Shown: positions 48,798 to 54,604 of the stretch, piece by piece
Layout: every line of letters starts with the position of its first letter
Numbering within the stretch: the stretch's first letter is position 1
From: an uncultured archaeon
GTDB taxonomy: Archaea; Asgardarchaeota; Heimdallarchaeia; Heimdallarchaeales; Kariarchaeaceae
Reading direction: 5' to 3'
NCBI GenBank assembly: GCA_964645535.1
Contig: CAZYCQ010000001.1
Coordinates: forward strand, 32,001-96,000
Length of the DNA: 64,000 nt
Translations under genes and position numbers: made by a program
Notes under the pieces: model-generated
The model's input: only the letters and a program-made list of their open reading frames with translations
Told to the model about the DNA's origin: nothing
Database searches by the model: none

Positions 48798-49463
48798 GTG
48801 GATCATTCATCGTTTATGGAACAAGTGCGAAATAAATTAGCGAACAGAAAAGAGAGACTTGTCAATCGTAACAATTTGAATGATCCTAAGGAAGGAGCTG
48901 TTTTGTTTCCTCTCCTTTATGCACCAGATGAGGAAATCCATCTTCTTTTGGTGAAACGTTCAAACCAAATGAGAAATAACCCAGGAGACATGGCATTTCC
49001 AGGGGGTAAACTGGATCTAGGAGAGACACCAATTGAAGGAGCATTAAGAGAAGCCGAAGAGGAAGTGGGAATTAAACCTAACCAAGTCAAAATACTGGGA
49101 ACCATGGATGAATATGTTTCGAGGAATCATACCGTCGTGCGGGCAGTTGTTGGAGCAATTGAAGTCAATCCCTCAGGAAATTTAAGAGAATGGGCAGAGA
49201 GGGTTTTTGCCCCAAAAACAGAAGAAAATTTAGTGACGCTGGTGATTCCACTCTCACACTTTCTGAATCCACAAGTCTATTCTTCTAAAAAATATATTGG
49301 ATCGAATAATCGAGTGGGATATATTCGCTATTTTGATATTTCCGAATATCTCCCAACAGAAAAAGTTTGGGGACTTACCGCCACGATCATCAGAAGGTTT
49401 GCAGATTTATTTTTTGCACACCAGCTACCTGAAGAGCCTTTGACTCAAGGAATCCAATCATAA
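48798..49463 (+). CDS. Nudix hydrolase, CoA pyrophosphatase type
   Basis: PGDMAFPGGK...ALREAEEEVG Nudix box and VWGLTA. Confidence 0.9.
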   Translation: MDHSSFMEQVRNKLANRKERLVNRNNLNDPKEGAVLFPLLYAPDEEIHLLLVKRSNQMRNNPGDMAFPGGKLDLGETPIEGALREAEEEVGIKPNQVKILGTMDEYVSRNHTVVRAVVGAIEVNPSGNLREWAERVFAPKTEENLVTLVIPLSHFLNPQVYSSKKYIGSNNRVGYIRYFDISEYLPTEKVWGLTATIIRRFADLFFAHQLPEEPLTQGIQS

Positions 49464-50494
49464 ATCAATTTTTCACCGGTTTGGATATATTGGAATTTGA
49501 CATCTCTTATTTTAAGCAATAGCTGTTCCTGTTCTTGTTTTTCAGGGATAATTTCATTCAAGAGGGTTTTTCCGCTTATAATGGAGGCAATTCCTGCACT
49601 AGAGAGTGAATAGGAAGAATCTCCTTTTGCGATAGCATTTGGATTTTCCTCACCAGTTAAAAGAAGACGATTGTAGTAATCTGGATGAGCTGAAAGAATA
49701 CTGAACCCATGGTGAGGTCTGAAGGACTCTGGATCTTTAATGACCGTATTGAATGCATCTATGGCGGCCTTATTGGGAAGGAAAATATTCCTTGAGATTA
49801 CCCCCCGTAACATTGCCTGGATGGAATATGCCTCTTCAATAATCGAAAATGGGATCATCGTAATAAGTTCATTTATTGTACTTCCATGAATATCTCCCTC
49901 AAAAATAGGAGGTGCATTCATCAACTTTTCAAAATGATCCATGGGAAGAAGGATCATATTAATTTCCCTTACATTCGTAATGAATTTTCCCTTATCCAAA
50001 CTGAATTCAGTGAAGAGTATGCCAGGCCCTGAGATCATGGCCAATTGAACACCCAATTTGTCCTGAACGATTTCAATTTCATTGTTCAGCATGATAATTG
50101 TATCCTTTCGGATTTCAACAACCGGACGATTCAAATAGAAGCCCAAGGTTTTCTTTTCAAGAAGGGCAGACCAAGATGGAATAATCAGCAAGGAATTGAG
50201 GTTCTTCTTTTCAATTTCTCTTAGACGAGCCAATTTCAGTTCTTTGTCAATTCTTTTGATCTCTTCATCGATCGTGTTTATTATTTCATCTACGTTTGTA
50301 GCAAATTGCCTTTTGGGAAAGCCGAAATCACTCATGAATAAAAGCAGATCACGAATGGAGAATTCGCCAAGATCCATTTCATCGAACCGATCTGTGCTAC
50401 TATAATAATATCGTAACAACTCTAGTAGCCTTTTTGTGCGAAGTGCATCTTGGTATGAATCTGTTTTCTCTATGTCTAACGGGATGACATCCAC
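49445..50494 (-). CDS. Hypothetical soluble protein downstream of the SNARE-like gene
   Basis: 349-aa ORF with an SD-like GGAGG upstream on the minus strand; no family recognised. Confidence 0.6.
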   Translation of the reverse strand: MDVIPLDIEKTDSYQDALRTKRLLELLRYYYSSTDRFDEMDLGEFSIRDLLLFMSDFGFPKRQFATNVDEIINTIDEEIKRIDKELKLARLREIEKKNLNSLLIIPSWSALLEKKTLGFYLNRPVVEIRKDTIIMLNNEIEIVQDKLGVQLAMISGPGILFTEFSLDKGKFITNVREINMILLPMDHFEKLMNAPPIFEGDIHGSTINELITMIPFSIIEEAYSIQAMLRGVISRNIFLPNKAAIDAFNTVIKDPESFRPHHGFSILSAHPDYYNRLLLTGEENPNAIAKGDSSYSLSSAGIASIISGKTLLNEIIPEKQEQEQLLLKIRDVKFQYIQTGEKLIYDWIP

Positions 50495-50555: not shown

Positions 50556-51284
50556 TCACTTCACCATCCCACTAAGCATTACGGTGGAAATCGCAGTGAT
50601 TGCAATCAAGATTATTACCCGATTTCCAGTAATTTTCCTACTTACCTCCTTGATAAGCTTCTGCGCTTTATCCAATTTGCTATCAAGGACATCAACTTTT
50701 TCATCAATTCCCCTGATTATTACACCCTGTTCCTCCAATTGACCTGCCATGTTATCTAGAGAGTTTTTGATCAATCCTATTTGGGCAGTTAATTGGCTCA
50801 TTGCCTCAGCAATATTGCTTTCCATCTGATTCATCCGTTCCTCCACCTTTTTGATGGCTTCATCCTCTTTACCTCCAGCCTCAAGCTTTACTAGATTGAG
50901 ATATGCATCACCTATTTCCTCATAATTTTGACGCGAGGTTCGCAATGCAATATCTAATTTCGCAATTGAATCTTCAAGGGCAGCCAAGGTGGATTTGTTC
51001 CGTCGTATTTTTTTTAGTCTTTCCTCTTCCTGTTTGATTTCAGCCGGCTTGATAAACGAGGGCAGTGTCGATTTCAGCCTCCCAAATCCCCCGCGTTTTT
51101 CCTTGAGTGTTTCCGAATATGATTCATCGAATTCCTCAAATACTTCCTTCATTGACCCAACTATGTCCTTCAATTCCGTCAGTGTTTCTTCGATGAGATC
51201 ATCAGTTGTATCCTTTCGGCTTAGCTTCTCCCCTATTTTTTTAATAAGAGACTTTTTGCTCTTTTTCTTATGGGTAGCACTCAT
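50556..51284 (-). CDS. Tail-anchored Q-SNARE-like (syntaxin-like) protein
   Basis: Helical N-terminus; residues 162-214 form a SNARE heptad with zero-layer Q186 (MAGQLEEQGVIIRGIDEKVD); basic linker; C-terminal TM 223-240 with almost no luminal tail. Confidence 0.75.
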   Translation of the reverse strand: MSATHKKKSKKSLIKKIGEKLSRKDTTDDLIEETLTELKDIVGSMKEVFEEFDESYSETLKEKRGGFGRLKSTLPSFIKPAEIKQEEERLKKIRRNKSTLAALEDSIAKLDIALRTSRQNYEEIGDAYLNLVKLEAGGKEDEAIKKVEERMNQMESNIAEAMSQLTAQIGLIKNSLDNMAGQLEEQGVIIRGIDEKVDVLDSKLDKAQKLIKEVSRKITGNRVIILIAITAISTVMLSGMVK

Positions 51285-51353
51285 CTGATAGATTTAGGAA
51301 GGAACGATAATAAAACGTTCCTAATTTGAACCACGCTTTTTTCCACACTTGCG

Positions 51354-53651
51354 ATGATATTTCACAAGTTATTACTTTGCTACATAGAGTTTTTAATCGT
51401 CTTTTGGGACACTTGTCTTGTGGAATTTCCACCATACCAAAATGATTTTGCATTTAGCCTTCCACATGAAAGGTTTCTTGGAAGTTGTAAAGTCAATGAA
51501 ATAAACTATGACCTTTTATTAATGGAGATTCCAGTCCTAATTCTTTTTTTGAGCTTTTTCCAATTCATTTCTTTGCCTTTCAGAATATTTACTGCAACAA
51601 TTGTTTTTCTGCTCACAACACCTTTTGTATTTAGAAAGTGGCATTTTGAGTTGACAAACAAACGTTTGGTTGTTCGTAGATGGTTTGCTGGACTTGAAAG
51701 ATTTCTTTCTTGGATATCCATTAAACTTTCAATGATTGAAACACTGGAAACATCTCCGAGAATTAAAGCTGGACCGCTCCTACTAGGATATTGGATTCTC
51801 ACATCTTATGCCTTGCCACTGATAGAGTTTGGGTTAAGTGGAGAAATCCCTCTCCCATTTGCCGTCAAGCTTGCTTTTTTTCTTGGATTGTATTCATCGA
51901 CTGTTGAAGGGTATGAGGAAGATTTTACACACATATTCATTGAACCGATTTTTGAAACCTTTGCCGATGTTTCCTTGATGGCAGGGACAGTCATGCTGAT
52001 CATTGGTTTGTTTCTTTTCTTGGCAGGATTGCCATATAGAAAGGAGTTCAGATTGATAACTATTTCTGGACATAGTTTTTCTGTCCGTACGGGTCTTCCA
52101 AATGACTTTTTATTTCTCTTGGATGGAATTATGCGGAAACATCACATACAGGGAGAATTTGAAAATGAAGTTCACTTTCCGAAACTTATTGATGAAGAAC
52201 TGAAAGCCAAAGGCAGATTGGGTCTAATAGATAGAAAGAATCAGTTGATTGGATTACTTTCCCTCATTATGTTTGTTAGAGGGTTCGCAAATCTCTTAAG
52301 CAGGTTACAAAATGCTGATCAAAGAGATGTCATTTTTCTTTTTCTGAATCTAATTGATTTTCTTCTCATTCTATTTTTAATTGTTTTTGCCAAAAGATTT
52401 CAGAAGATATGGGCAACAAACCACAGAATAATTTTTCAGGACGAACGAAGAGGAATATCTGGCCTATGGGGAAGAAGGATTTTCACATATCGTGATCTAC
52501 CGTTTTCACAAATCCAAGGGTTCAAGGTTTCCTATTACTCCGGATTTTCGCCTTACTCATTATATTTTGGAGTGGGAATCCTCTTGGCAATTCAAGCGAT
52601 TGCCACATCACTTGCGGTTAAATTACCTTCCAGCCCACATTTTTTGATCTATTCAGTTGGGGTTATTATTGCCGGTCTGTATCTTCTATTGAATTTCCGG
52701 ACATTTGGTGAGTTGACCCTATTTTCATTGGGTGGAAGAGTACATCGCTTAAGATTCAGAACTCCCTATATTGTATCCAAATTGTCACATAGACTCGAAG
52801 GAAAAGAAGGATTGGCCGAAAAATTCTTTCCAAATCTTTTGAGTGATGCGGAAATTCAGAAAATATGCAATGTAATTAGAGGATACAATGAACCAAAAAG
52901 ACCTTTGACAAAAAGGGAACATTATCTTGATGCATTTAGTTTTATAGGTAAAGATGAAAAAATACTTTTCAGCGTCGAGAAAATAAAACCCCATCCATTT
53001 TATTGGCTTTTTGCGATCGTATTCATTCTATCTGGTGTTACAGTGATTTATGTCTTCATGGTTCTTTTTGAGAAATTTGATTTTCCCAGTGTGGTTGCAT
53101 CAGGAATTCTGATTGCATCAACTTTATTTCTTCTTGTTCGAACTGTTGCATTTGCCATCATTAAAAGAAAATCCCTTATTCTAACTGAAGACCGATTAAT
53201 TGACCAATCTGAAACAAATCCAACCAAGTTGGCCAAATGGCTGGGATATTTGCCAATATGGGAACTTCGAGAAGTCAGAAATGACTTTGTAACTTCAATA
53301 AGACAGCAAATATTGTTTCATAGGTTCAGGCCTAAAGGTATCTTTTCCTTAGTGCTAATCTCCCTCTTTTCGGTCAAGATTGTTGTTCTCCTTGATTATC
53401 CATATTCTTCTTTTGACAGGAATCCTGTTTTTATTGTCCTGATGCTTTCACCATTTTTGTTGATTTCTTCCATCAACCATTTCCTGTTGGCACTTATGGA
53501 AACCATTCCCCGTTATGGACTCAAAATAGAAACACGAAAATTTACATTATCATACTCTCATTTCCCAAAATCAAAGCAGTTCGAACAGATTTTTTATCAA
53601 GCAGTAAGGAATCGAAACACCTACAATCAAATGATTAGGGAGGGACTATGA
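51354..53651 (+). CDS. Polytopic membrane protein with three bacterial-PH-like repeats (start uncertain)
   Basis: Three units of TM pair plus LTNKRLVV..IKLSMIETLE / ATNHRIIF..DLPFSQIQGF / LTEDRLI. Confidence 0.6.
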   Translation: MIFHKLLLCYIEFLIVFWDTCLVEFPPYQNDFAFSLPHERFLGSCKVNEINYDLLLMEIPVLILFLSFFQFISLPFRIFTATIVFLLTTPFVFRKWHFELTNKRLVVRRWFAGLERFLSWISIKLSMIETLETSPRIKAGPLLLGYWILTSYALPLIEFGLSGEIPLPFAVKLAFFLGLYSSTVEGYEEDFTHIFIEPIFETFADVSLMAGTVMLIIGLFLFLAGLPYRKEFRLITISGHSFSVRTGLPNDFLFLLDGIMRKHHIQGEFENEVHFPKLIDEELKAKGRLGLIDRKNQLIGLLSLIMFVRGFANLLSRLQNADQRDVIFLFLNLIDFLLILFLIVFAKRFQKIWATNHRIIFQDERRGISGLWGRRIFTYRDLPFSQIQGFKVSYYSGFSPYSLYFGVGILLAIQAIATSLAVKLPSSPHFLIYSVGVIIAGLYLLLNFRTFGELTLFSLGGRVHRLRFRTPYIVSKLSHRLEGKEGLAEKFFPNLLSDAEIQKICNVIRGYNEPKRPLTKREHYLDAFSFIGKDEKILFSVEKIKPHPFYWLFAIVFILSGVTVIYVFMVLFEKFDFPSVVASGILIASTLFLLVRTVAFAIIKRKSLILTEDRLIDQSETNPTKLAKWLGYLPIWELREVRNDFVTSIRQQILFHRFRPKGIFSLVLISLFSVKIVVLLDYPYSSFDRNPVFIVLMLSPFLLISSINHFLLALMETIPRYGLKIETRKFTLSYSHFPKSKQFEQIFYQAVRNRNTYNQMIREGL

Positions 53652-54604
53652 TCATGAATTGGGATGCCAAGCTAAAAGTGGTAATTTTTGGGAAATACGA
53701 TCTCAAGAGTATTTTTGAAAAGCATAGAATTCCTGGAGAAAGGCTAATCGCAGAACAAGACATCCTATATTATTCTGAAATTCCCCTGTTCCTTGCTTTA
53801 ATTATAGGGATTGTATCTCTTTTCCTCTCTTTGTTGCTGGATCCCATTTTTCTTGTTGGAATACCAATAATAATTCTAATTACGTATTTTTCCATTTCAA
53901 TGGAGTTTGTGTTTCTCACCGACGAAAGGATTCTTATTGAGAGAAGGTATCTGCTGGATAAAATACTATCAACCCGGACAATAATAAACATTGCATTGGA
54001 TCAGATCTCTATTGTAGAGTCAGGAAGAGCGCCTCCTAATTGGCCAGTTTCATTTGTCACTATGGGAACCCTCCTTTTATCTGTCTTTTCAGCCATGATT
54101 ACTTCCAATGTTTTTACCAAGTTAATATGGGGATATGTAGGATTAATTTCAACATTCATCTTGATTTATTCGTTACGACTATTCAGACGAGCAGTTTCAT
54201 TATTTGTTGTTGGAAGTAGACTTCCTATTGTAATTGGTGCAAGAAAAGGGATATCTGTGTATTGGGTGAAGAAACTTCATGAAACATTGTTTGAACGAAT
54301 TCACCACGTAGAACATATTTATTCATCTCACAAGGAACTTGACACCAAAATCAATGAATTCCCGTTGGAACTTCCCCAAAATCTCAAGAAAGTATTGGTC
54401 AATCTTTCACAAAATGTGGAAAAAGAGATATACAAACTACTTTATTTCGAGCCCCGAACAAAGAAAGAATTGTACTCTGAATTAGAAGATTTCGACAATC
54501 ATCTAATTGATAATGGCCTATCCCATCTCTCCAAGGAAGGGATGATTGTATATGACCGGAGCAGAAGAGTCTGGACAATTACTGGAAAGGTCCCAAATTC
54601 ATAG
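53648..54604 (+). CDS. Membrane protein with bPH-like domain and C-terminal winged helix
   Basis: GERLI...LTDERILIE...IALDQISIVE; C-terminal EIYKLLYFEPRTKKEL...LSKEGMIVYD...W. ATGA-coupled to the upstream gene. Confidence 0.6.
   Translation: MIMNWDAKLKVVIFGKYDLKSIFEKHRIPGERLIAEQDILYYSEIPLFLALIIGIVSLFLSLLLDPIFLVGIPIIILITYFSISMEFVFLTDERILIERRYLLDKILSTRTIINIALDQISIVESGRAPPNWPVSFVTMGTLLLSVFSAMITSNVFTKLIWGYVGLISTFILIYSLRLFRRAVSLFVVGSRLPIVIGARKGISVYWVKKLHETLFERIHHVEHIYSSHKELDTKINEFPLELPQNLKKVLVNLSQNVEKEIYKLLYFEPRTKKELYSELEDFDNHLIDNGLSHLSKEGMIVYDRSRRVWTITGKVPNS

Follow-up and report, generated by a model that had tools for sequence, protein, structure and literature searches.

The window analysed here is a 64,000-nucleotide stretch of the genome of an uncultured Kariarchaeaceae archaeon (assembly GCA_964645535.1, contig CAZYCQ010000001.1, positions 32,001 to 96,000), and coordinates refer to it unless another contig or locus is named. 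On its minus strand, an open reading frame encodes a protein of 242 residues that combines a SNARE-type motif with a C-terminal membrane anchor, next to a gene for a soluble protein of 349 residues. The features of the locus, with the evidence behind each, are as follows:

49445 to 50494, minus strand: neighbouring gene, whose 349-residue soluble product belongs to a functionally uncharacterised pan-Asgard family (genome surveys)
50556 to 51284, minus strand: gene for the 242-residue protein, assigned as a Heimdall prototypic SNARE (HPS2 orthologue, Kari clade; homology, tree)
50562 to 50618, minus strand: residues 223-241, single C-terminal transmembrane helix, the tail anchor (hydropathy)
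50619 to 50642, minus strand: residues 215-222, short basic juxtamembrane linker (alignment)
50643 to 50801, minus strand: residues 162-214, 16-layer SNARE motif, 66% identical to that of HPS2 (layer scan, alignment)
50727 to 50729, minus strand: Q186, layer 0 (layer scan, 38 orthologues)
50802 to 50867, minus strand: residues 140-161, predicted coiled-coil extension with hydrophobic layers 144, 147, 151, 154 and 158 (tetramer model, alignment)
50880 to 51044, minus strand: residues 81-135, predicted long helix 2 of an N-terminal hairpin (model, alignment)
51045 to 51092, minus strand: residues 65-80, hairpin-tip turn, conserved, with a near-invariant P75 and the motif L-P-x-F (alignment)
51093 to 51203, minus strand: residues 28-64, predicted long helix 1 of the hairpin (model, alignment)
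51213 to 51263, minus strand: residues 8-24, predicted basic amphipathic N-terminal helix, hydrophobic moment 0.83, net charge +3 (low-confidence model, alignment)
51307 to 51315, minus strand: TATA-like box, 23-31 nt 5' of the ATG (sequence; several relatives similar in spacing)

When the motif is re-derived from the translation, Q186 (codon 50729-50727) occupies layer 0, and layers -7 to +8 read M162, L165, I169, I172, L176, M179, L183, Q186, I190, I193, V197, L200, L204, A207, I211 and V214, with all 15 non-zero layers hydrophobic. The frame, the codon and every layer residue agree with those given in an earlier, sequence-only reading of this DNA, which had also described a short basic linker, a single C-terminal transmembrane helix and no signal peptide. 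A hydropathy scan recovers the same arrangement, with the tail anchor as the one transmembrane segment (Kyte-Doolittle 2.46); since the best 19-mer within the first 150 residues reaches only 0.50, a signal peptide is not expected. As a check on chance, the stop-to-stop ORFs of the whole genome were scanned for the layer pattern (1.2 million scan windows in total). Among some 40,000 Q-centred windows, 15 of 15 hydrophobic layers occur in one, that of the 242-residue frame, and no other Q- or R-centred window of the genome reaches this number, while windows with 14 of 15 layers are nearly all membrane segments. Upstream of the gene, the TATA-like box suggests a promoter of the leaderless archaeal type; it is flanked by a 7-bp inverted repeat (51300-51322), a palindrome that shows no conservation among the relatives compared.

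Among 13 full-length relatives retrieved by a protein search, those with names come from Heimdallarchaeota or Kariarchaeaceae. Aligned with HPS2 (OLS22354.1, from Ca. Heimdallarchaeota archaeon LC_2; Neveu et al., Curr Biol 2020, bioRxiv 10.1101/810531), the protein is 48% identical across 230 residues without long gaps (E 2e-79). In a tree of 38 family members, the query and HPS2 nest in a 14-row clade (support 99/98) that is separate from the Hodarchaeales branch, a placement that points to Kariarchaeaceae as the host family, and the gene tree broadly parallels the host families. Full-length homology, 16 layers with a polar layer 0, a linker and transmembrane helix, a Heimdallarchaeia host and the grouping in the tree are the marks of the Heimdall prototypic SNARE (HPS) family, to which the protein almost certainly belongs. 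The sequence-only reading, which had seen a tail-anchored, Q-type SNARE-like protein of a kind known from Heimdallarchaeota, was therefore right, the protein being a full-length HPS2 orthologue. It is a new copy of a published family and not itself new; about 52 Heimdall SNARE-like proteins have been listed, mostly single-copy and outside the Qa, Qb, Qc and R groups (bioRxiv 10.64898/2026.10.19.760048). With HPS2 it has length, layers, linker, tail anchor and a well-supported clade in common, while it comes from another genus of the same family, and no functional difference is evident.

The other member studied in vitro, HPS1 (PWI47941.1, B3-JM-08), has a crystal structure (Bentahar et al., bioRxiv 10.64898/2026.10.19.760048), in which four chains run parallel as a homotetramer and layer 0 consists of four Gln. 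HPS1 and the query share family, architecture and Gln at layer 0. The HPS1 sequence itself lies outside our alignment, and its numbering (F155, Q183) fits the 239-residue Hodarchaeales branch, which is about 25% identical to the query overall and 36-43% in the motif. Gene order in that branch is unlike that at the present locus: in the Hodarchaeales loci compared (L016-L030, groups f5 and f6), a same-strand Roadblock/LC7 gene follows the SNARE gene in 14 of 15 cases and a TFE alpha gene comes next in 13 of 15.

The gene belongs to the archaeal genome in which it was assembled. Its neighbours are archaeal, among them TFIIB and a Bud32-like kinase, the contig is 163 kb long, and the GC3 of the gene (0.42) is ordinary for the genome (0.40 +/- 0.05); it is therefore native, and eukaryotic contamination is excluded by these observations together with orthologues in 37 other genomes.

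Layer 0, whose conservation the sequence-only reading had named as a test, is Gln in 34 and His in 4 of the 38 orthologues. The entries with His in place of Gln (L006, L015, L022, P0012 and P0029) sit on three separate branches of the tree. The most conserved segment of the family is the linker, residues 215-222, with a mean conservation of 0.73. The segment equivalent to the hairpin tip, residues 65-80, is deleted in P0044, a tandem paralogue from another genome.

The best solved sequence match is the Qc-SNARE syntaxin-6 (PDB 2NPS chain D, residues 159-219, E 1.5e-4), which was likewise the best match found by Neveu et al. (bioRxiv 10.1101/810531). The two share the register of layer 0, whereas syntaxin-6 has Ser at layer -3 where the query has Leu, forms part of a heteromeric QabcR complex, and carries an Habc domain and linker. 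Together with published trees that place the family outside Qa, Qb, Qc and R, this match leaves the label "syntaxin-like" or "Qa-like" given in the sequence-only reading without support. The Qa-SNAREs syntaxin-1, -7 and -13 do have Gln at layer 0, a bulky layer -3 and a tail anchor in common with the query, but their matches to the family profile are weak (E 0.0016 to 0.035), none is the top match, and neither an SM protein nor partner SNAREs were found in the genome (89% complete). The bulky residue on which the label had leaned is real, layer -3 being L176 (Ser in syntaxin-6, Phe in syntaxin-7) and Leu in 34 of 38 orthologues, but it is not diagnostic of Qa. R-SNAREs too have a bulky layer -3, and such a residue is to be expected of a symmetric homotetramer, which needs no small partner residue. 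Among the SNARE profiles scored against the query, Pfam SNARE (E 0.7) and V-SNARE_C (E 0.068) both lie below cut-off and below generic coiled-coil families, while 18 of the 38 members match SNARE at E 0.01 or better, compared with 20 for the generic coiled-coil family DUF1664 and 16 for V-SNARE_C. Matches in the ESM Atlas all score below 0.9 and serve as leads only. With the signal from sequence profiles marginal, the case for a SNARE is carried by the layer register, the architecture and the structure published for HPS1.

The sequence-only reading had proposed models of four-helix bundles, and residues 138-222 modelled in four copies give a parallel bundle. Its ipSAE is 0.81, where the best control reached 0.03, although this score may reflect likeness to solved SNARE bundles that the model has learned. 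In calibration, the ipSAE mark was attained by 20 of the 30 solved homo-pairs, as against 1 of the 23 single chains, and it holds only roughly for four copies. Across the four-copy runs at least 94% of contacts agree and partner pLDDT is at least 85, with modelled contacts running from residue 139 to 219, in register and parallel (197 with 197, 204 with 204), as in HPS1, which is a tetramer by SEC-MALS and in the crystal (bioRxiv 10.64898/2026.10.19.760048). Against a homotetramer stands HPS2, the closer relative, which eluted at about 70 kDa in published work that did not fix its oligomeric state. On balance, a parallel homotetramer is very probable, and it is likely that the protein is both a single-copy HPS2 orthologue and homotetrameric. 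The bundle may also be longer than the canonical one. Because positions 144, 147, 151, 154 and 158 are hydrophobic in nearly the entire 38-member family and fall within the modelled contacts, in register with the SNARE motif, the bundle may extend about five layers N-terminally beyond the canonical 16.

The monomer model (pLDDT 70, pTM 0.56) predicts helices at residues 8-72, 81-135, 140-185, 193-219 and 225-241. Here, the N-terminal part consists of the two long helices 8-72 and 81-135, which pack with the motif. A fold search with this model retrieved generic up-down four-helix bundles over approximately residues 25-220 (best Z 12.1, rmsd 3.3, 134 aligned), and the span of these matches suggests a motif folded back against the hairpin at the N-terminus. 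Such a fold-back could represent a closed state, or be an artefact of folding a single chain of an oligomer. The Habc-like bundle that the sequence-only reading had thought possible finds no confirmation: the 50 best structural matches of the pLDDT-70 model include no syntaxin or Habc chain, an absence from a list that does not exclude an Habc domain. The basic amphipathic helix at residues 8-24 may contact a membrane.

The sequence-only reading implied R, Qb and Qc partners, and none came to light. The SNARE gene occurs once in the genome (89% complete), as it does in nearly every carrier; a profile search of the genome gave no match to a synaptobrevin-like protein, and none of 33 candidate ORFs encodes a second SNARE-like tail-anchored protein. 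The four-chain, 3Q:1R set of the eukaryotic QabcR machine was thus not found in this 89% complete genome, and a search for a Sec1/SM protein, run without a positive control, gave no match either. Searches for general SNARE machinery, which had likewise been suggested, recovered one Get3/ArsA-type ATPase gene (C4:8357-9295) and three Cdc48 genes, in a search that does not tell NSF and Cdc48 apart. Because Get3 and Cdc48 are general archaeal proteins, as the controls show, they lend no specific support. SNAP models gave partial coverage in long ORFs and matched bacteria as well, so these matches are probably generic TPR proteins.

The 349-residue neighbour invites the reading that the two genes form a module in which the neighbour is a dedicated SNARE regulator, either a chaperone or a disassembly adaptor. 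Its gene is the direct neighbour of the SNARE gene at 12 of the order's 15 loci, a pattern that spans two families, and in one further genome the two lie 2.8 kb apart; at the present locus the neighbour is downstream on the same strand, with a gap of 61 nt. However, in most relatives the two genes are divergent, and there they do not form one operon. The neighbour's gene is unlinked to the SNARE gene in a Hodarchaeales genus, and it also occurs where the SNARE was not found, in many other Asgard lineages as well as in 30 of the 31 Heimdallarchaeaceae genomes. Adjacency is in any case often retained between the genomes compared, with a background of 18/53 and 28/103. A regulator of this kind is quite improbable, and a dedicated partnership of the two proteins unlikely. 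The neighbour's family, present in 118 of the 251 Asgard genomes searched, has paralogues in Hodarchaeales, forms a domain of 460-700-residue proteins in other Asgard groups, keeps the short invariant motifs PSW, GPG and SAH, and is a candidate Asgard-wide domain. The protein has no match in Pfam, NCBIfam, PDB or the Atlas, and its model is poor (pLDDT 51). In Heimdallarchaeaceae (loci L044-L060), its homologue is flanked by a PfkB-like gene on one side and, on the other, by an AMP-phosphorylase-like or Cgi121-like gene, as named by eye. On the other side of the SNARE gene and divergent from it, two overlapping genes on the plus strand (51354-54604) encode multi-pass membrane proteins of 765 and 318 residues without a Pfam or NCBIfam match; as SNARE partners they were set aside, being beside the SNARE gene in no other locus compared.

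In a survey of 400 genomes of the phylum, orthologues are confined to the class (f1 10/11, f2 1/1, f4 3/3, f5 20/22 and f6 2/2), with none found in f3 (G011-G041, 0/31) or f7 (G080-G091, 0/12) in searches that use a loose first look, a result that wider profiles left unchanged. Divergent orthologues in these two groups were considered and rejected: their weak matches (E 1e-4 to 1e-2) are short or anchor-less coiled coils, as compared to E < 1e-29 for true orthologues. Because it includes Ca. Heimdallarchaeum aukensis, f3 is taken to be Heimdallarchaeaceae; two of the f3 genomes consist of a single contig. Carriers occur both in the order of this family and in the other order, so loss of the SNARE in Heimdallarchaeaceae appears to be the simplest reading. 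The count of 0/31 agrees with the report of an isolate of that family with abundant internal vesicles and no SNAREs (bioRxiv 10.1101/2025.11.06.686947), while it conflicts with a listing of Heimdallarchaeaceae among carriers in a study whose clade names are stated not to be taxonomic (bioRxiv 10.64898/2026.10.19.760048). Conversely, two Hodarchaeales isolates in which no endomembrane system and only rare vesicle-like structures were seen (bioRxiv 10.1101/2025.02.26.640444) carry the gene (bioRxiv 10.64898/2026.10.19.760048). With a vesicle-rich isolate that lacks SNAREs and internally simple isolates that have the gene, gene presence does not track internal vesicles.

A few loci elsewhere depart from the single-gene pattern. 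Tandem SNARE paralogue pairs occur at L063:2978-4470 and L061:219-1639 (35% and 27% identical, with P0044 a long branch), and possibly mark the start of a heteromeric bundle. In a single case (L062:5001-8092, on a 2.85-Mb contig), the SNARE gene P0033 adjoins genes for a TPR protein and an Arf/Ras-type small GTPase on the opposite strand. At L065:6110-6553 (G064), the SNARE ORF matches the profile from about position 79 onwards, and its 5' end may be broken or truncated.

From these elements a working mechanism can be proposed. The C-terminal helix would be inserted post-translationally, leaving the N-terminus cytoplasmic, probably by the Get3/ArsA-type ATPase of the genome; HPS1, for its part, targets the ER in mammalian cells in published work. 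Four identical chains would then zip together in parallel, their helices forming one bundle with a layer 0 of four Gln, as shown for HPS1 and modelled here. If their anchors sat in two apposed membranes, zippering would draw these together for homotypic tethering or fusion, an outcome to which we give about an even chance. Membrane fusion has been demonstrated for no member of the Heimdall SNARE family (bioRxiv 10.64898/2026.10.19.760048). More speculatively, the N-terminal hairpin might pack on the motif and hold the monomer closed, and a Cdc48-type ATPase might dismantle spent bundles, both of which are doubtful.

A tail-anchored coiled coil could also have converged on SNARE features without common descent, as the below-cut-off SNARE scores, the slight lead of DUF1664 across the 38 members and the lack of an Habc match to the N-terminal domain might suggest; with the family profile, a designed coiled coil and reovirus sigma-1 even score above SNAREs. 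The signal nevertheless falls exactly in the layer-0 register (E-E-Q with syntaxin-6, H-E-Q-G with syntaxin-7), motif length, linker and anchor position are all SNARE-like, and syntaxin-6 served as the search model in solving the HPS1 structure. In a search of 1.8 billion proteins, moreover, the nearest sequences outside the family include, as judged by eye, eukaryotic-type SNARE-like tail-anchored proteins (E 3e-4 to 7e-4), and convergence is accordingly improbable. Another reading, towards which the sequence-only reading leaned, makes the protein a Qa or syntaxin-type chain within a heteromeric QabcR-like complex, the remaining chains having diverged past detection. The bulky Leu at layer -3 and the weak syntaxin profile matches fit this, the tandem paralogues of two genomes could mix in bundles, and the genome is 89% complete, leaving some room for missing chains. 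Very little credence can be given to it, however, with a Qc-SNARE as top match, a single copy with no second candidate, no Sec1/SM match (in the search without a positive control) and a homotetramer in HPS1.

A more serious rival keeps the same bundle and removes the fusion. Here, the four chains assembled within a single membrane would make a very stable cis stalk, some 21 layers long, which would hold the hairpins out in the cytoplasm as a scaffold or tether, and the amphipathic, basic helix at the N-terminus might take hold of a partner or of another membrane. Fusion would then be a later eukaryotic invention built on the scaffold, in competition with zippering in trans. Published work gives melting above 90 C and resistance to NSF, nothing obvious would stop a homomer from zipping in cis, and five extra layers are conserved. 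Layer 0 tolerates His, which occupies it on three separate branches; internally simple cells carry the gene, while searches of the family with the vesicle-rich isolate did not find it; and Neveu et al. (bioRxiv 10.1101/810531) leave room for tethering or bending as a role. On the other side, the link between layer +8 and the transmembrane helix is the most conserved part, as expected if the force of zippering reaches the membrane, and HPS1 and HPS2 can join neuronal SNARE complexes in published work. We regard a cis stalk as a real possibility, a little short of even. Further still from the data, the protein might be a self-regulating one-protein fusogen, in which the hairpin-closed monomer opens and a homotetramer of about 21 layers zips in trans. 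Because the gene seems lost in Heimdallarchaeaceae, its role would lie outside internal vesicle traffic, for example in protrusion or cell-cell fusion; taken as a whole, this combination is rather unlikely.

The HPS family is the best candidate ancestor of the eukaryotic membrane-fusion proteins. With some 52 members catalogued, two studied in vitro and one crystallised, the present copy adds little by itself, and what is added lies at the level of the family: the apparent absence from Heimdallarchaeaceae, the five extra layers, His at layer 0 and the pan-Asgard spread of the neighbour. This apparent absence separates the family from the vesicles seen there, and so weakens the vesicle-based argument for a fusion role in cultivated Heimdallarchaeia.
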